Below, one piece after another: positions 3,402-11,969 of a DNA stretch of 64,000 bases; position 1 is the stretch's first letter; every line of letters starts with the position of its first letter. The stretch is from Candidatus Aenigmatarchaeota archaeon (GTDB lineage Archaea; Aenigmatarchaeota; Aenigmatarchaeia; GW2011-AR5), in NCBI GenBank assembly GCA_016198685.1, contig JACQID010000008.1, forward strand, positions 1 through 64,000, read 5' to 3'. The notes beneath the pieces were generated by a model that was not told where the DNA came from, did not search any database, and saw nothing but the letters and a program-made list of their open reading frames with translations. Position numbers and translations under genes: made by a program.

Positions 3402-6400
3402 CTATACTTTGACCAACTCTTCAATATTGTTCTTGCTTAGGGCATTCGCCATCGTGCGGAACAGTTCCATGTTCGTTATGACAGGCACGCCGAATTCCAC
3501 GGATTTTTTCCTTATGAGTTGCTCATCTTGTATCGTTTGAACGACGTTTGATGACAGGGACGGAATGTTCACGACCATGTCAAGCTTCTTGCCTATCAGA
3601 TAATCAAGGAGGTTGGGTTGCTTATCCTCATTGACCTTGTACAGGGTCTCGCATTTTATCCCCTTGGATGAGAGGAACCTTGCGGTATCCTCAGTTGCGT
3701 ATATTCTGAATTTTTGTGAGAGCATACGCGTCGGCTCTTCTATCTTGGTTTTGTCCCCTCCTACAGTTATGAAAATAGAACCATCTTTAGGTATCCTTAT
3801 GCCTCCGGCTGTGGCGGACTTGAGGAACGCTTCTTCAAAGGAAGCGCCAAAACACGCGACTTCTCCTGTTGAAACCATTTCAACTCCGGTTACAGGGTCG
3901 GCGCCTAGCCGTGTAAACGAGAACTGCGGGAACTTGACGCCGTATATGGTTGGTTCCGTATAGACTTCGGTAACCTTATTTTCCATCATGGCTCGCGCAG
4001 CTATTTCCATCATGTTTTTCCCTATAGTCTTGGAAACAAACGGCATGCTCCGTGACGCGCGCAAATTGCATTCTATCACGTATATGCCGCCTTTCTTTAG
4101 CAGGTATTGCATATTGAAAGGGCCTTTGATATCAAGCGCATCAGCTATTTTTTCAGTAATGCGTATGAGATTATTCTTCTCATCTTGAGACACATTTAGC
4201 GCTGGCAACATCATGGTAGCATCCCCTGAGTGAACGCCAGCGTCTTCAATATGTTCAAGTATGGCTGCAACAAACGTTTTATCCCCCCGCACGCCGTCAA
4301 CCTCAACCTCCTTTGCCTTTAGGAGGAATTTTGAAATCGCGATAGATGAGTCGTCCGGCACCAGCTTCATGAAATCACTAAGTTGTTCGTCGCTGAACGC
4401 TACGTTCATTGACGAACCTGAAAGAACATATGACGGCCTTATGAGTACAGGGTAGCCAACATGTTTAGCAAAATTTTTGGCGTCTGCGGCGCTTTTTAGC
4501 ATAGTCCACTGCGGCTGCTGGATTCCTATGCTGTCAAGGAGCGACGAGAATTTTACGCGGTCCTCGGCGCGATCTATATTCTCGGCTTTTGTACCGATGA
4601 TGTTCATGCCGTATTTTGCAAGCGCTGTTGCAAGATTGTTAGGAATTTGGCCGCCGACGGAAACTACAATACCTAAAGGATTCTCCTTATCCGCTATGTC
4701 AAGCACCCGTTCGAGGGTAAGTTCGTCGAAGTAAAGCTTGTCGATGATATCATAGTCAGTGGAAACGGTCTCGGGATTATAATTAATCATTATGACTTCA
4801 TCTGCATATTTTTTCATCGCTTGCGCCGTATTGACGCAGCACCAGTCAAATTCAACTGAAGAGCCTATGCGGTAGCAGCCCGAGCCCAGGACTATTATTT
4901 TCTTTTTTTCTTTAAACAAAATGTCATCTTCAGTGCCGCCATAGGTCAGGTAAAGATAGTTTGTTCTTGCCTCCCATTCGGCAGCCGTCGTATCTATTTG
5001 CCTCACTGCCGGCACTATACCCATTTCTTTTCTGAGCGACCTTATCTCATCTTCTTTGCTATCCATAAGACTTGCTATTCTCTTGTCCGAGAAACCCAAG
5101 CGCTTGGCGCGGAAAATTGCATCTTTAGTCATGCTTATGCTTTTTTCAGCATCCACAATATTTTTTATTTTGGAAATAAACCATGAATCTATTTTCGTCA
5201 GGAAAGCTACCTGCTCCACGCTCATGCTTCTCAATGCATTGGCAATATGGAATACGCGGCGGTCATTGGGAGTTTCAAGCATCGAAATATCCGCTTCGCC
5301 GTTCATATATGTAAGCTCTTTGCCGACATCCAGCATGCGAACGGCTTTCTGCAGCGCCTCTTCAAAGCGCGTGCCGATCGCCATCACTTCGCCCACGGAC
5401 TTCATTTGCGTGCCTATCGTGGGATCAATATCCTTGAATTTCTGGAAGTCCCATCTTGGCATTTTGACTACGACATAATCAAGCGCCGGCTCAAAGCAAG
5501 CGCTCGTTGCGGTCATCTTGTTCTTTAATTCATGCAAACGATGGCCAAGCGATAATTTCGCAGCTATGTATGCTATAGGGTAGCCTGTTGCTTTGCTCGC
5601 AAGCGCAGAGCTTCTCGAGAGACGGGAATTTACTTCTATTACCTTGAACGTATGGCTTCTGGGATCAAGTGCATATTGAATATTGCATTCGCCTACTATG
5701 CCGAGCGCGCGAACGACCTTAAGAGCGGTTGTTCTTAGCATATGATACTCCTCGTCATTGAGCGTCTGCGACGGCGCGACGACTATTGAATCGCCCGTAT
5801 GCACGCCCATTGGATCAAAATTCTCCATGTTGCATATGATTATGCAATTGTCGTCCCGGTCACGCATGACCTCGTATTCAAGCTCTTTCCAGCCGTCAAG
5901 ATATTCTTCAACAAGAATCTGCCTTATGCGGCTGTATGATAGACCACGATAGGAAATTTCTTTTAATTCTGCGTCGTTATGGGCCACGCCTGACCCATAG
6001 CCGCCGAGCGTATAGGCTACGCGCACTATGACAGGATACCCTATTTCTTTTGCGGCCTTGAGAGCATCTGTCACAGAATTTGCTTCCATGCTTCTTGGGA
6101 CAGGAACATTATTTTGCTCCATCAGCGACCGGAATTTTTCCCTATCGCTTGCCAGTTTTATGCTCTCAGGTCCTGTGCCAAGAACGACAACGCCGTATTT
6201 TTCAAGTATACCGGTTTCATGCAGTTCCATGCCGCAATTGAGCGCCGTCTGGCCGCCAAAACCTAATAGTATCCCGTCAGGCAGTTCCTTGGCTATCACC
6301 TTTTCGACGAACGCGGGCGTTATAGGGATGGAGTATACCTTGCCTGCAAATCCCGGGTCGGTCTGGACAGTAGCTATGTTAGGATTGACAAGCACCGTTT

Positions 6401-6509
6401 CGATGCCTTCTTCCTTGAGAGCCTTTATTGCCTGGGAACCGGAGTAGTCGAATTCTCCCGCCTCCCCGATCTTGATTGCGCCCGACCCGATAATAAGGAC
6501 TTTTTTCAT
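3402..6509 (-). CDS. carB: Carbamoyl-phosphate synthase large subunit
   Basis: GSGAIKIGEAGEFDYSG, ENFDPMGVHTGDS, duplicated ATP-grasp halves, C-terminal MGS-like domain. Confidence 0.98.
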   Translation of the reverse strand: MKKVLIIGSGAIKIGEAGEFDYSGSQAIKALKEEGIETVLVNPNIATVQTDPGFAGKVYSIPITPAFVEKVIAKELPDGILLGFGGQTALNCGMELHETGILEKYGVVVLGTGPESIKLASDREKFRSLMEQNNVPVPRSMEANSVTDALKAAKEIGYPVIVRVAYTLGGYGSGVAHNDAELKEISYRGLSYSRIRQILVEEYLDGWKELEYEVMRDRDDNCIIICNMENFDPMGVHTGDSIVVAPSQTLNDEEYHMLRTTALKVVRALGIVGECNIQYALDPRSHTFKVIEVNSRLSRSSALASKATGYPIAYIAAKLSLGHRLHELKNKMTATSACFEPALDYVVVKMPRWDFQKFKDIDPTIGTQMKSVGEVMAIGTRFEEALQKAVRMLDVGKELTYMNGEADISMLETPNDRRVFHIANALRSMSVEQVAFLTKIDSWFISKIKNIVDAEKSISMTKDAIFRAKRLGFSDKRIASLMDSKEDEIRSLRKEMGIVPAVRQIDTTAAEWEARTNYLYLTYGGTEDDILFKEKKKIIVLGSGCYRIGSSVEFDWCCVNTAQAMKKYADEVIMINYNPETVSTDYDIIDKLYFDELTLERVLDIADKENPLGIVVSVGGQIPNNLATALAKYGMNIIGTKAENIDRAEDRVKFSSLLDSIGIQQPQWTMLKSAADAKNFAKHVGYPVLIRPSYVLSGSSMNVAFSDEQLSDFMKLVPDDSSIAISKFLLKAKEVEVDGVRGDKTFVAAILEHIEDAGVHSGDATMMLPALNVSQDEKNNLIRITEKIADALDIKGPFNMQYLLKKGGIYVIECNLRASRSMPFVSKTIGKNMMEIAARAMMENKVTEVYTEPTIYGVKFPQFSFTRLGADPVTGVEMVSTGEVACFGASFEEAFLKSATAGGIRIPKDGSIFITVGGDKTKIEEPTRMLSQKFRIYATEDTARFLSSKGIKCETLYKVNEDKQPNLLDYLIGKKLDMVVNIPSLSSNVVQTIQDEQLIRKKSVEFGVPVITNMELFRTMANALSKNNIEELVKV

Positions 6510-7546
6510 TTTTTCATCAGCTCGATAAACTTGTCAAAAAGAAATTCCGTATCCCGCGGCCCGGGGGATGCCTCGGGGTGGAACTGTACTGCGAAGAACG
6601 GCAAAGTCTTGTGTGTCATGCCTTCCATAGTTCTGTCATTTATATCGAGCATTGTCGCTTCCGCGTAATCAGGAAGATTGTTGACTTCATAGCCGTGGTT
6701 CTGGGACGTTATGTAGCACTTGTTTGTTTTCACGTCGATACACGCATGATTTTGCCCGCGGTGGCCGAACTTTAGTTTGCGTGTCGCGCCGCCCATAGAC
6801 AGGGCGAGTATTTGCATGCCAAGGCATATGCCGAATATCGGGATCTTGTATTCCATGAGCTGCTGTACGGCGCTTATTGTTGATTTTGCCATGGTAGGAT
6901 CGCCCGGACCGTTCGATATGAGGATGCCCTGAGGAGCATATGACATTATTTTATCTGCACTGTAAGATGCAGGCAATCGCAATACTCTTGCGTCTCTTGC
7001 CAGCAACGAACGAATTATGTTCTCTTTAGCGCCGCAGTCAATAACGGCTATTGTCGGCCCGGTGCCTTGATAAATTATAGGCTGTTTCACGGTAACCAGG
7101 GACACAAGGTCGGTCTGATTGGGGTCCTTGATGTCCGGCATTATCGGCGTATCGCTAATAGCTCCGAGCATGGTGCCTTTTGCGCGCAGAATTTTTGTCA
7201 GGCGTCTTGTGTCTATGCCTGATATTCCCGGGATGCCATGCTTTTTTAATGTTTCATGCAGCGTAGAAAATGCGCTCCTGTGGCTTGGGGTCTTGCAGTC
7301 TTCGCTTGTCACATAGCCCTCTATTTTGGGCGAAGCCGATTCAAAATCGTTTTCATCGATACCATAATTCCCTATTAGAGGGAAAGTCTGGCATAGTATC
7401 TGCCCTTTGTAAGAAGGATCGCTTATGGTTTCTGTATAACCGGTCATGCCAGTGTTAAATACAACTTCGCCGCTTGTAATGGCAGGGCTTCCGAATGACT
7501 GGCCTTCAAAGACAGATCCGTTTTCTAGAACAAGATATCTCTTCAA
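6506..7546 (-). CDS. carA: Carbamoyl-phosphate synthase small subunit
   Basis: GEVVFNTGMTGY, SNGPGDP, GICLG (catalytic Cys), QFHPEASPGP; 4-bp overlap with carB. Confidence 0.98.
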   Translation of the reverse strand: MKRYLVLENGSVFEGQSFGSPAITSGEVVFNTGMTGYTETISDPSYKGQILCQTFPLIGNYGIDENDFESASPKIEGYVTSEDCKTPSHRSAFSTLHETLKKHGIPGISGIDTRRLTKILRAKGTMLGAISDTPIMPDIKDPNQTDLVSLVTVKQPIIYQGTGPTIAVIDCGAKENIIRSLLARDARVLRLPASYSADKIMSYAPQGILISNGPGDPTMAKSTISAVQQLMEYKIPIFGICLGMQILALSMGGATRKLKFGHRGQNHACIDVKTNKCYITSQNHGYEVNNLPDYAEATMLDINDRTMEGMTHKTLPFFAVQFHPEASPGPRDTEFLFDKFIELMKK

Positions 7547-7652: not shown

Positions 7653-8228
7653 TTACACCCGAAGCTCGCCGCGGAATCCTCTGGCGACATAGTAAGATTC
7701 TGCGCCGTTGTGATACACGAAGACATGGCCATAGCGGCGATCAGCAAAAAGGGCACCGTCAAGTTTTCTGATATCGGAAGGTGTCTTCACCCAGCTTGAT
7801 GTCTTCGTATCGAACTTTCCAAGTTTCTGCAATTCCCGGTATTGTTCTTCCGTTAAAAGCTCAATGCCCATCTCGGTTGCCATCCCAATAGCGCTATTTT
7901 CCGGTTTATGTTCTTTCCTTGACTCCAGCGCTTCATGGTCGTAACAAACACTTCTGCGGCCTTTAGGGCTTTCCGCCGAACAATCGCAAAAAATATATTC
8001 GCCCGTCTTTTTATTATAGTCAACGACATCCGGTTCACCGCCAGTTCTTTCCATTTCATTGAGTGACCGCAGTTTCCCACTATTAGCTTCCAGCCTTGCT
8101 TGTACTTTAGCCCATTCAAGATCTTTATGACGGTTCGTGTTTTTCTCAAAACGGGCTTGCAACGCTCTGAGTAGTTCTTCACGTTGTTTTGGCGACAACT
8201 CCTTTTTATTGTCATTAATGTTGTTCAT
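7653..8228 (-). CDS. DUF4256-family protein
   Basis: MERTGGEPDVV, DCSAESPKGRRSVCYD, YHNGAESYY-x-x-RGFRG match this mainly bacterial family as I recall it. Confidence 0.85.
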   Translation of the reverse strand: MNNINDNKKELSPKQREELLRALQARFEKNTNRHKDLEWAKVQARLEANSGKLRSLNEMERTGGEPDVVDYNKKTGEYIFCDCSAESPKGRRSVCYDHEALESRKEHKPENSAIGMATEMGIELLTEEQYRELQKLGKFDTKTSSWVKTPSDIRKLDGALFADRRYGHVFVYHNGAESYYVARGFRGELRV

Positions 8229-8439: not shown

Positions 8440-8718
8440 ATGCTGAATATTTTCAGGAAAAATACTGTATATAGCAATCTAAAACCGGGTGATATCGTCT
8501 ATTTCTCGGACATGCACTATCCGGAACTGCATCCGGCAGGTTCGGTCGTTGAACTTTTGGCTAACGGAATGGTGCGTTTGGATTCCGGATGCAACGACAG
8601 CTATAGAGGCCTTGCCAGGTATTCTGAAAGGCATTCTTCAGTTCTCACTACGCTCCCGATAAAGGCAAAGAATCATTTCAAAAATCAAAAGCACTCTTCT
8701 AAAGCGGTGGATTTTTAA
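8440..8718 (+). CDS. Hypothetical protein (92 aa), possibly KOW/SH3-like
   Basis: LKPGDIVY...GSVVELL...MVRL beta-strand pattern; weak. Confidence 0.5.
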   Translation: MLNIFRKNTVYSNLKPGDIVYFSDMHYPELHPAGSVVELLANGMVRLDSGCNDSYRGLARYSERHSSVLTTLPIKAKNHFKNQKHSSKAVDF

Positions 8719-8741
8719 GATTCGTGTTGCAATAATCTACT

Positions 8742-9194
8742 ATGAAAGAAGAGACAAAAAAGAAAGCGATGGTGCTTTTCATAGTCGGAAGCTTGTTCCT
8801 CTCGTCCATTGCATTCTTCGTTATAGGCTTTGCAACCAGCAGCGCTCCGCCTGAAATAGAGCCGCTTACCTCTTTCGTTCTTGAAAAAGAGCTTTCAAGG
8901 GAATCAGAGAGCTTCTACATAAGCAATGGATTCACCGTGCTGAAATTATTCCATCATAATTCCAGCCTTGATGAATTTGCCAATGGCCTGCCGGATTCCA
9001 TGACAACAGTAGGCGGGCAGAGGCAGTTGATTGTGGAAAAGATACCTGCGAACCAGACTTATGTGACTATTGAGAGCCTCAATGGGAAGCAGGTAGTTAA
9101 TAATCCTGACGAAGAGAAAATAACAGCCGTTTTATGCGAGGGATTGATGCTCAAGCCTTCTGTCTGCCTTTTCGGAAACCTTAGCGCATCTTAG
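8742..9194 (+). CDS. Membrane-anchored hypothetical protein (150 aa)
   Basis: N-terminal TM helix; C-terminal LC...P..C pair. Confidence 0.75.
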   Translation: MKEETKKKAMVLFIVGSLFLSSIAFFVIGFATSSAPPEIEPLTSFVLEKELSRESESFYISNGFTVLKLFHHNSSLDEFANGLPDSMTTVGGQRQLIVEKIPANQTYVTIESLNGKQVVNNPDEEKITAVLCEGLMLKPSVCLFGNLSAS

Positions 9195-9291
9195 CTATGT
9201 CTTCCTTGAAGCGCCGGAGAATCTTGGGCACGTCTTCCGCTTCAACGCGTAGTATTTCAGCCGCTTTCTTTATCTTTTGTATATCATCCAT
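9181..9291 (-). CDS. 36-aa ORF coupled to alaS, resembling the AlaRS helix-loop-helix dimerisation segment
   Basis: MDDIQKIKKAAEILRVEAEDVPKILRRFKEDIAKMR; ATG overlaps the alaS stop (ATGGATGA); not in the ORF track. Confidence 0.65.
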   Translation of the reverse strand: MDDIQKIKKAAEILRVEAEDVPKILRRFKEDIAKMR

Positions 9292-11890
9292 CTTTCATCC
9301 GCTTCCTTATTTTTTCTAATGCCAGTTCATCCGGCGTGTTTTCGTACGTTCCCTGGGCAAATGTTCCGGAACCCCCGCCGTTACCTCCGGTGAGGTTTAG
9401 AGCGAACTTCATTATTTCCGATGCATTGCCGCCGGAGGCAACTATGCTTTTGTCTTTGGTTCCGAAAAGAACATAGGAGCCGCCAGTTCTTGTTATCGCC
9501 ATAAGGCTTTTTCTCTCCGCGTCAAGCACATCTACGCTTTTTACCTCGATGCTTTGTGCAAGCGAGGCCGCTTTTTCTTCATATTCTTTTCTTGCGCGTT
9601 TCCATTCGTTGAAAAGCTGCTCTGTACCGGCCACTATGTCCTTTGTTTCCAGTATACTTTCGGCTTCCCTGGCTAAAGATGCCATTTTTTCTTCGTATTC
9701 CTTAGCAGCTTCGCCTGCGACCAGTGTCAGTCTGACAACGCCGTCCTGTATTTTTTCGGCCTTGGTTATTATGATTCTGCGGATTGTTCCTGTATTGTCG
9801 ACGTGCGTTCCGCCGCATGCTTCCGTGTCCACTTCAGGTATTTCAACTATTCTTAGTTCCTTTGCAGGTATGGCCGGGCCCTGATATATTCGCATGCCGA
9901 ATCTCTTTTCAGCCTCGGTTCTCTCTATGACATGCTTATGCGTCTGAATGTTTCTTTTGACTGCGTCATTAGCCATCTTTTCTATCTCATCTAGCTGTTC
10001 ATGGGATGGAATCTTGTAATGCGTAAGATCTATAGTTGCCTTTTCAGGCGTCTTCAGAGCTCCTGCCTGCCAGAGATGGCTGCCAAGAACGCGCCTTGCA
10101 AGGCCATTGACTATATGAACTGCGCTGTGATGATGCATGAGCCTCTCGCGTCTTTTTGCATCAATAACGCCTTTTACGGTATCGCCTTCTTTGAAAGGAA
10201 TGCCGGACATCTTGTGCGCGACTACTGTGCCGAATTTTTGCACATCTTCAACAGGAATGGCATTAATAGCGCCTAAGTCATTCTGCTGTCCTCCGCCTTC
10301 AGGATAAAATACCGTTCTGTCAAGGACAACCCAGTTATCTCTTATTTTCAGAACTGTGGCCGTGAATTCCCTTGCGTTGTTGTCCTTGTAATAAAGGAGC
10401 TCTGTCGGCGCTGCGTCAAATTCTATCTTCATCTTTTCTTTCTTCTCGGTTCTTCTGTGTCTGTCAGCTACAAGTAGATAGAAATTTTCAGGAATAACTA
10501 TATTTGGCATCACTTCCTTTACGTCCTCTGGCGGGATGCCATGGCTGTCATAAAGCTCTATAAGCTTGTTTGTGTCAACGTTCCTAAGCTTGCTTACTAT
10601 TTCCCTGCTTTTCTCTTTCGTAGAATCATATTTTTCCTTTTCATATGCGAGTATATCGTCTATGCTCCCAATGGCTTCCTGAAGCTCAGGATATATTTCC
10701 TTGAGATAATCCGCATGCAATTCACAGAGCTTGGCAAAATCAATATCCCATCCGTACTTTCTTGAGAGCGAAAACGCCCTTCTCAGTATCAAGCGCAGGT
10801 TATAGCCCCCTCCGACATTGCTTGGAAGCGTTCCGTCATTTATCGCGACAAGCAATGTTCTTGTATGTTCGGCAATCGAATAGAGTGCAGCAAGAGGCAT
10901 GACGTTCTCCCTGAGAAGTTTTGCGTCATACCCCGTCTTTTCTGCAACTTTCTTCCATGCTTTGTCCATGTCTTCAGTTTCGTCTATGTTAAGCATCGAT
11001 GCATACGGCAGGAATTTCTTGATGATGTCTTCGTTTACTTGTATTCCGGTTATGCTCTTGAGATGCGTCATCACCGTTGGGAAAGTTGTCTCGTAGCTAT
11101 TGACAGTTCCGTGCGAGAACCATGCATTCCTTTCCTGCCCAAGACCCATGTCGAGGACCTTGAGCTTAAGGTCCTCGTAACCAGTTTCAGTCTGCCTGAA
11201 CTGCATGTATACCTGGTTTGCTAATTCAAGGCCGCCTGAGAAAAATTCCACGCATGGGCCGAAGTTGCCTGAGCCGGCCCAAACGTCCTCGTGTAATATT
11301 ATTTCTTCCTTGGGAAGGCCGAGGCCGTCTGTGAACCACTTCATGAGGTGGAGGAAATAATCATTCATCCTGTAATCCTTAGGCTGCTCGAATCTGTGCT
11401 GCCCAATCATGACAAAACATGTATAATGCGCTCCTGTTATTCCTACATTGTCTATGTCGTTGAACCTGAGGCACGTTTGCGGTATCACGAGTGGATTTGC
11501 CGGCGGCTTTACTTCGCCGGATATGACATAAGGAATGAAATCGTCTATTGAAGCTTCCACGAAATGCAGGTCTGTTCTCCATCTTGCCGTCACAGGATAG
11601 CGTTTTATCGGTGTATAGCCCTGCTTCTGCAAAAGTTCGGAAAATTTTTTCCAGACCTCAGGATAAGTCATCTTGTGCTTTGCCGGGCTGTTGCCTATGA
11701 ACGAATATCCTCCGCAACATGCAGAATCCCCGCAGGCGCTTCGCGCCTTGACGGACCAGAACGCGCGGCCGCACGACATGCATTTTCGCCTAACAAAGCC
11801 TAAATCCGCCATGCCGTTAGGATAGTATTTTGAAGGTTCCTTTGCGAATTCAATGAAGTATTTTTTCTTCAGTGCTTTGTCATCTAGCAT
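9284..11890 (-). CDS. alaS: Alanyl-tRNA synthetase, archaeal type
   Basis: C-x-x-C N-terminus, HFVEASIDDF, VLDMGLGQER, editing HHSAVH...EACGGTH, short C-Ala. Confidence 0.98.
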   Translation of the reverse strand: MLDDKALKKKYFIEFAKEPSKYYPNGMADLGFVRRKCMSCGRAFWSVKARSACGDSACCGGYSFIGNSPAKHKMTYPEVWKKFSELLQKQGYTPIKRYPVTARWRTDLHFVEASIDDFIPYVISGEVKPPANPLVIPQTCLRFNDIDNVGITGAHYTCFVMIGQHRFEQPKDYRMNDYFLHLMKWFTDGLGLPKEEIILHEDVWAGSGNFGPCVEFFSGGLELANQVYMQFRQTETGYEDLKLKVLDMGLGQERNAWFSHGTVNSYETTFPTVMTHLKSITGIQVNEDIIKKFLPYASMLNIDETEDMDKAWKKVAEKTGYDAKLLRENVMPLAALYSIAEHTRTLLVAINDGTLPSNVGGGYNLRLILRRAFSLSRKYGWDIDFAKLCELHADYLKEIYPELQEAIGSIDDILAYEKEKYDSTKEKSREIVSKLRNVDTNKLIELYDSHGIPPEDVKEVMPNIVIPENFYLLVADRHRRTEKKEKMKIEFDAAPTELLYYKDNNAREFTATVLKIRDNWVVLDRTVFYPEGGGQQNDLGAINAIPVEDVQKFGTVVAHKMSGIPFKEGDTVKGVIDAKRRERLMHHHSAVHIVNGLARRVLGSHLWQAGALKTPEKATIDLTHYKIPSHEQLDEIEKMANDAVKRNIQTHKHVIERTEAEKRFGMRIYQGPAIPAKELRIVEIPEVDTEACGGTHVDNTGTIRRIIITKAEKIQDGVVRLTLVAGEAAKEYEEKMASLAREAESILETKDIVAGTEQLFNEWKRARKEYEEKAASLAQSIEVKSVDVLDAERKSLMAITRTGGSYVLFGTKDKSIVASGGNASEIMKFALNLTGGNGGGSGTFAQGTYENTPDELALEKIRKRMKDG

Positions 11891-11969
11891 CTTAATCAAT
11901 TATAGGCAAAATCTTAATAGTTAAGGAAAGGCGGATTTTTACCGGCTGTAGCGCCCATACGTTTGTATC

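Follow-up and report, generated by a model that had tools for sequence, protein, structure and literature searches.

A 36-codon gene overlapping archaeal alaS: a predicted free-standing copy of the AlaRS helix-loop-helix zipper, and probably a detachable piece of the enzyme

The alaS locus and the small gene that overlaps it

The window, i.e., the whole stretch of 64,000 nucleotides that was analyzed, carries on its minus strand an alaS gene (9284..11899), which Pfam and alignment identified as encoding an archaeal-type alanyl-tRNA synthetase (AlaRS) of 871 amino acids with a complete C-terminal domain. The Pfam matches were tRNA-synt_2c (4.8e-86), tRNA_SAD (1.7e-13) and, weakly, DHHA1 (0.0013), and the C-terminus could be aligned to residues 714-791 of the Archaeoglobus AlaRS and to PDB entry 2ZVF. 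Since the enzyme is complete in one 871-residue ORF, it does not belong to the split AlaRS of the Nanoarchaeum equitans type. The helix-loop-helix of the enzyme itself (hereafter HLH1; 9569..9682, minus strand), located by translation and by alignment to approximately residues 748-787 of the Archaeoglobus AlaRS, has the sequence ILETKDIVAGTEQLFNEWK and is the presumed docking site in the interpretation developed below. An earlier note on this DNA had described this segment as diverged and shorter; its loop is indeed two residues shorter than that of Archaeoglobus, but the related AlaRS in the order are similar, and it is no defect special to this genome.

On the same strand, and overlapping the end of alaS, lies a gene of 36 codons plus TAA (9181..9291; ORF list and translation), the predicted product of which is referred to here as the microprotein. 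Its ATG occupies 9289-9291 and its TAA 9181-9183, and it is read in the +1 frame relative to alaS. It had been claimed earlier that this ORF begins inside the alaS stop, which was confirmed by reading the sequence: the ATG falls within ATGGATGA (9284..9291, minus strand), the 8-nt start/stop overlap of the two genes. All the sequence elements named in that note are present at the locus. A TGA lies in frame with the small ORF, two codons 5' of its ATG. Also read from the sequence was the motif AAGGAAG (9302..9308, minus strand), situated within the 3' end of alaS and 10 nt 5' of the ATG; it is a partial match to a Shine-Dalgarno (SD) motif and may play an SD-like role in the initiation of the small gene.

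The system is bounded, on the plus strand, by a convergent ORF of 150 amino acids with a hydrophobic N-terminus (8742..9194; ORF list), which is not a part of it. The final 14 nt of this ORF overlap the last codons of the microprotein gene, an arrangement that is also seen in close relatives (loci L002-L005), and its translation had no Pfam family. A search of Rfam over 8600-9700 returned zero RNA families, and an explanation of the region as structured RNA is therefore unsupported. The genes farther along form an ordinary context, comprising a DUF4256 protein (7653-8228, minus strand) and carB/carA-like subunits of carbamoyl-phosphate synthase (3402-7546, minus strand), the latter named by eye from their translations.

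Conservation of the small gene and its kinship with the AlaRS zipper

The earlier note had set a zipper segment of the Archaeoglobus AlaRS beside the peptide as a close match, and the segment was given correctly: residues 16-40 of PDB 2ZVF contain ILRVEPAKLPKTVERFFEE, the counterpart of which in the ORF is ILRVEAEDVPKILRRFKE. The match of the single peptide to 2ZVF was nonetheless weak (12.3 bits, E 0.11), and when the single peptide was compared with the PDB by phmmer, de novo TIM-barrel repeats ranked above AlaRS. The claim of kinship with the zipper therefore hinged on finding relatives of the peptide.

To this end, the alaS loci of 40 related genomes were taken, and the DNA 3' of the stop codon was read. 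Close relatives retrieved from a named genome collection were mostly labelled Candidatus Aenigmatarchaeota. The same peptide was found 3' of alaS even where AlaRS identity was only 41-55%, with a consensus of DvPKtLrRFKkE over the loop and second helix. Of the 30 relatives of the same order, 27 had the gene no more than 150 nt downstream of alaS and in the same orientation; in the three exceptions, it was 0.4 kb downstream (G011), convergent to alaS (G015), or on another contig (G020). The homologous ORF behind alaS that the earlier note had proposed to look for was, in other words, recovered in 27/30 genomes of the order and in numerous others throughout the phylum. Relative to alaS, the gene was read in frame +1 or +2 depending on the genome, and the start codon fell anywhere from -25 to +97 nt from the alaS stop. 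When 70 microprotein loci were examined, 47 adjoined alaS, the commonest spacings being overlaps of -4 nt (14 loci) and -8 nt (8 loci). Most of the alaS-adjacent homologs had an SD-like GGAGG, GAGG or AGGA upstream, at the place that AAGGAAG occupies in the window. The unlinked copies, some of which lay on a different contig or the opposite strand, had AT-rich DNA upstream instead; outside the order, they made up about one-third of the sampled loci (family f14 and part of f16).

In whole-genome profile searches, 49 of the 70 genomes of the order had one copy each, and 200 of the 371 genomes of the phylum Aenigmatarchaeota gave matches, including those inside AlaRS. Against 1.84 billion representative proteins, the profile retrieved 90 matches at E<=1e-3, nearly all of them 30-80 amino acids long, and the name given to members by NCBI is "hypothetical protein". 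Within genus, dN/dS (Nei-Gojobori) was 0.08-0.33, and synonymous changes were many. Because the ORF is conserved across the phylum and is under purifying selection, it is far beyond what chance would produce, and by these comparative measures the 36 codons are a protein-coding gene rather than a chance ORF, a relic or an extension of AlaRS by frameshifting.

Two of these discarded explanations deserve a fuller account. It could be argued that the ORF is a non-functional relic, left when the 3' end of alaS was partly duplicated, or that it arose by chance, since the product is short, has no Pfam family, and reaches significance only as a profile and not as a single sequence. However, its amino acids are conserved even where AlaRS identity has fallen to 41%, and also outside the order, its dN/dS is well below 1, and its start codon and SD-like motif have been maintained, all of which contradict a relic so strongly that we give it hardly any credence. 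An extension of the AlaRS C-terminus through programmed +1 frameshifting or readthrough is conceivable in that the two frames overlap by 8 nt, and a change of frame within the final three codons of alaS could in principle fuse the two. It had been argued earlier that the in-frame TGA just before the ATG speaks against this, and the argument holds; it is reinforced by the individual start codons and SD-like motifs, by an offset that varies among relatives and uses either alternative frame, and by the copies on other contigs or the opposite strand. A frameshift product is likewise contradicted, and must be deemed extremely improbable.

With relatives in hand, the relationship to the zipper became clearer. 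A profile of 15 sequences found, in the PDB, 2ZVF (E 1e-4) and residues 749-780 of 3WQY, the full-length Archaeoglobus AlaRS (E 0.0037), and no other significant match. When the profile was built from 55 sequences, the values for 2ZVF and 3WQY improved to 7.6e-8 and 1.6e-6, respectively, over residues 748-787, and the next match after AlaRS was vimentin (E 0.005). Comparison of the microprotein profile with the C-terminal HLH of 14 Aenigmatarchaeota AlaRS by hhalign gave a probability of 95.9% (E 5.6e-9). A profile search against archaeal AlaRS, suggested as a check in the earlier note, thus gives a significant match to the HLH, both against 2ZVF and by hhalign. In an AF2 model based on the 55 sequences, the microprotein folded as a helical hairpin with helices at residues 3-14 and 18-35 (pLDDT 96). 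Hydrophobic residues, as read from the sequence, recur at positions 4, 7, 11 and 14 and at 21, 24/25, 28, 32 and 35, a heptad-like pattern on both helices, such that the microprotein has the two amphipathic helices and the short loop that characterize the AlaRS zipper. The zipper of the enzyme is part of the AlaRS polypeptide and is followed by a globular DHHA1-like subdomain, neither of which is true of the microprotein. As the latter is encoded by a distinct ORF, which comes after the alaS stop and has an ATG to itself as well as an in-frame TGA upstream, the microprotein should be regarded as a paralog of the HLH domain and not as the domain itself. Judged by the profile comparisons, the microprotein is a free-standing paralog of the dimerization HLH zipper of AlaRS, copied from the enzyme.

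The search for known families by Pfam yielded no match for the peptide, and its 15 homologs gave only helix-turn-helix (HTH)-like noise (E 0.006-0.1), all of it below the gathering scores. Identity as an HTH DNA-binding protein was rejected, because the Pfam matches were all sub-threshold and two helices are predicted where three or more are required.

Several variants of the gene were encountered. In G003, which belongs to the same genus, the final microprotein codons are split by some 83 nt of inserted DNA with an inverted repeat of about 10 bp (L003:2400-2530); the original ...AAGATGCGCTAA end now lies farther downstream, and the C-terminus of the protein has changed. The insertion looks like a miniature mobile element. 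Some members (L017:4188-4412, P0004, P0010) have a basic N-terminal extension of about 35 amino acids (MKRKAPFG...) before the HLH, which is conserved between genera. In one or two genomes (P0067; L128:2700-3413, G346), a protein of 238 amino acids joins the unit to the N-terminus of a domain of the uracil-DNA glycosylase superfamily.

AlaRS types in the phylum and the second helix-loop-helix in cis

The AlaRS of the phylum is of more than one type, and the presence of the microprotein gene was compared with them. In 41 of the 371 genomes, AlaRS is about 590 amino acids long and ends right after the editing domain, with no HLH and no C-Ala. The microprotein gene is absent from 40 of these 41; the sole exception, G295, also has an HLH-bearing AlaRS of 786 amino acids, and the microprotein gene is located directly behind it. 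The HLH-less enzymes are scattered over six families, and they contrast with microprotein-bearing genomes within five genera (g69, g78, g129, g138, g149). A naive Fisher test of this co-loss gave p = 5e-14, a value that overstates the independence of the genomes, although several independent contrasts remain. Examples of the ~590-residue AlaRS are found at L130-L134 (G016, G013, G010, G040, G036). A long archaeal-type AlaRS was looked for in six genomes with this enzyme and was not found. By impression, the sequence of the ~590-residue AlaRS looks bacterial-like.

The free microprotein gene accompanies two types of AlaRS, namely the full-length type of the window and a short type of 770-800 amino acids that ends at HLH1 and is common in families f16, f23 and f28. 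The short enzymes (L062, L063, L067, L091-L103, L109, L112, L129) are without the globular DHHA1-like subdomain that binds the tRNA elbow. In the short-AlaRS lineages, this globular C-Ala subdomain was not encoded beside the microprotein; the downstream gene there is that of the Cbf5/TruB pseudouridine synthase, and in family f28 the operon order is alaS, microprotein, cbf5 (TruB/PUA).

In still other genomes, a second HLH resides inside the AlaRS chain. A search with the family profile restricted to longer proteins gave no match, and the fused enzymes were detected only when a natural fragment, P0057, was used as query. Ten AlaRS of 833-866 amino acids (P0093-P0102, one of them labelled Candidatus Woesearchaeota) were thereby obtained, which lack the DHHA1-like subdomain and end in HLH1, a linker and HLH2. 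The HLH2 units matched the microprotein profile with domain E-values of 1e-4 to 1e-9 in full-length AlaRS and to about 1e-13 in short fragments, whereas the HLH1 units of the same fused AlaRS scored 1e-4 or worse, or were not detected. For 37 of 70 Nanohaloarchaeota genomes, the sole genome-wide profile match was internal to the AlaRS frame, where an extra HLH separates helix 1 from helix 2 of the usual zipper. An internal HLH insert like that of the Nanohaloarchaeota is present in the AlaRS of the Aenigmatarchaeota families f20 and f25, and among their genomes whose matches were listed there was no free gene. At L068:848-3796 (G214) and L083-L089 (Nanohaloarchaeota), the zipper region of the AlaRS, which is 930-990 amino acids long, contains a tandem insertion of one or two additional HLH-like units.

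As a structural proxy for the arrangement of the two HLH units, P0057 (125 amino acids; HLH1, linker, HLH2) was modeled by AF2 together with 12 fused relatives. The model was compact (pLDDT 85, pTM 0.73), with helices at residues 6-27, 31-53, 85-97 and 101-124. Its HLH1 could be superimposed on residues 737-787 of 2ZVF to 1.3 A over 51 residues (VIA-align, Z 4.3), which is not discriminating when taken alone: the other VIA-align matches of the model were generic helical bundles with Z<=5.2, most of them three-helix bundles spanning residues ~30-125. Foldseek found no match of the model in the PDB at E<=0.001. The model is consistent with HLH2 packing on HLH1, the pTM of a monomer being no proof of such packing.

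Taken together, the synteny (27/30), the absence (40/41) and the cis fusions describe a separately encoded homolog of a synthetase domain that tracks its cognate synthetase. The microprotein is tied to AlaRS by the fusions, by the internal inserts in genomes without the free gene, and by the co-loss.

Possible roles of the microprotein

We consider it reasonably likely that the microprotein supplies a second HLH in trans, which docks on the zipper of AlaRS and is functionally equivalent to the HLH2 that sister lineages carry in cis. It would be translated from its own ATG, probably coupled to the termination of alaS, and its two amphipathic helices would then dock on the AlaRS HLH to form a helical bundle. 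As a small subunit in trans, it would represent the "second HLH" that sister DPANN lineages hold within the AlaRS chain, and may either buttress the AlaRS dimer or occupy the dimer interface. In short, the microprotein is probably a detachable piece of AlaRS. The idea of a partner in trans has strong circumstantial backing from the genomic record, in the form of the natural fusions and of the co-loss with HLH-less AlaRS. Several observations count against docking. The AlaRS of the window has a full C-terminal domain, and its need for an extra HLH is not evident; a BLASTP comparison of the 36-residue peptide with this AlaRS returned no match to the HLH; and the unlinked loci outside the order must be added to these, as must the genome G031 (94% complete), which has a long AlaRS yet no detectable copy of the microprotein.

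The last two observations would be at home with an independent small helical protein, either a self-associating four-helix bundle or one that binds nucleic acid or some other partner, which derives from the AlaRS HLH only historically and for which linkage to alaS is a remnant of its origin. The occurrence of unlinked copies in several families, the one fusion to a uracil-DNA glycosylase domain, the weak HTH-like noise in Pfam and the missing copy in G031 all agree with such a protein. However, it would have to have disappeared, in 40 of 41 genomes, together with the HLH-bearing type of AlaRS, over six families and within five genera, and its distribution is complementary to that of the cis forms; the HTH matches, moreover, were all below the Pfam cut-offs, and there are two helices only. 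An independent role is in our estimate unlikely. A regulatory microProtein is also to be considered, which would bind the AlaRS zipper and compete with homodimerization, as a dominant-negative or a switch, and so tune AlaRS activity without being a constitutive subunit. The microprotein is, after all, a small single-domain copy of the dimerization element of a larger protein, a review (PMC8583063) reports that the AlaRS of archaea and bacteria must dimerize through C-Ala in order to charge tRNA, and the unlinked copies, which are preceded by AT-rich DNA of their own, could be under separate control. Against this, the cis fusion in sister lineages, which fixes the ratio at 1:1, is more in keeping with a permanent structural component than with an inhibitor that can be titrated, and the stop/start overlap suggests co-expression with alaS. 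Regulation of this kind consequently strikes us as quite improbable.

Returning to the preferred reading, i.e., a trans-encoded HLH that docks on the zipper, a more far-reaching version may be envisaged, in which the homodimer interface of AlaRS in Aenigmatarchaeota and other DPANN lineages has been taken over by the extra HLH, either in cis or as a 4-kDa subunit in trans, with the enzyme being a "pseudo-dimer" or switched between monomer and dimer by the microprotein. This extension is speculative and we doubt that it is correct; if true, it would give an aminoacyl-tRNA synthetase its first partner of the microProtein type, and would be a natural instance in which a copied fragment has replaced a dimer interface.

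To the helical subdomain of the Archaeoglobus fulgidus C-Ala (2ZVF/3WQY), the profile is significantly similar over some 40 residues, among them the hydrophobic positions and the P-K-T turn, and the predicted helix-loop-helix has helices of the same lengths. Unlike it, the microprotein is a separate product of 36 amino acids, without the globular DHHA1-like subdomain or the rest of the enzyme, and the second of its helices falls well short of the long helix in the AlaRS zipper. The closest parallel is offered by the two-HLH AlaRS (P0093-P0102, Nanohaloarchaeota, f20/f25), the extra HLH of which matches the microprotein profile better than HLH1 does and is distributed in a complementary manner, but is covalently part of AlaRS; no description of these cis forms was found in the literature searched. 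In eukaryotes, microProteins such as Id, acting on bHLH proteins, and LITTLE ZIPPER, acting on HD-ZIPIII proteins, regulate transcription factors. They share with the archaeal microprotein the property of consisting only of the dimerization motif of a larger, multi-domain relative; in contrast to them, the cis fusions of the AlaRS unit argue for a structural role.

AlaRS has repeatedly been described as retaining one prototype architecture throughout biology, and as the only synthetase to have gained no new domains (PMC8583063; PMC10036535), and a full-text literature search covering the AlaRS HLH zipper, C-Ala, free-standing forms and DPANN/Aenigmarchaeota retrieved no description of such a protein. 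In the genomes considered here, the C-terminal region of DPANN AlaRS has been remodeled in several ways: the globular subdomain has been lost, and the zipper has been duplicated, with the duplicate either fused, inserted, or freed as a gene of about 40 residues. A microprotein that tracks its parent enzyme would be an easily testable model of how oligomer interfaces evolve by fragment duplication. It would likewise exemplify a functional archaeal protein, as predicted, of fewer than 50 amino acids, of the sort that annotation pipelines miss or call 'hypothetical', and could serve as a marker for the type of AlaRS that a DPANN genome uses. A piece of a synthetase with a gene of its own has precedents in the AlaX trans-editing proteins and in the alpha and beta parts of the AlaRS of Nanoarchaeum equitans (split AlaRS; PMC11392972). 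Those, however, are catalytic or tRNA-binding modules of at least 150 amino acids, whereas the microprotein is an oligomerization element of about 40 amino acids beside a complete AlaRS. Copies of AlaX are also present in these related genomes.
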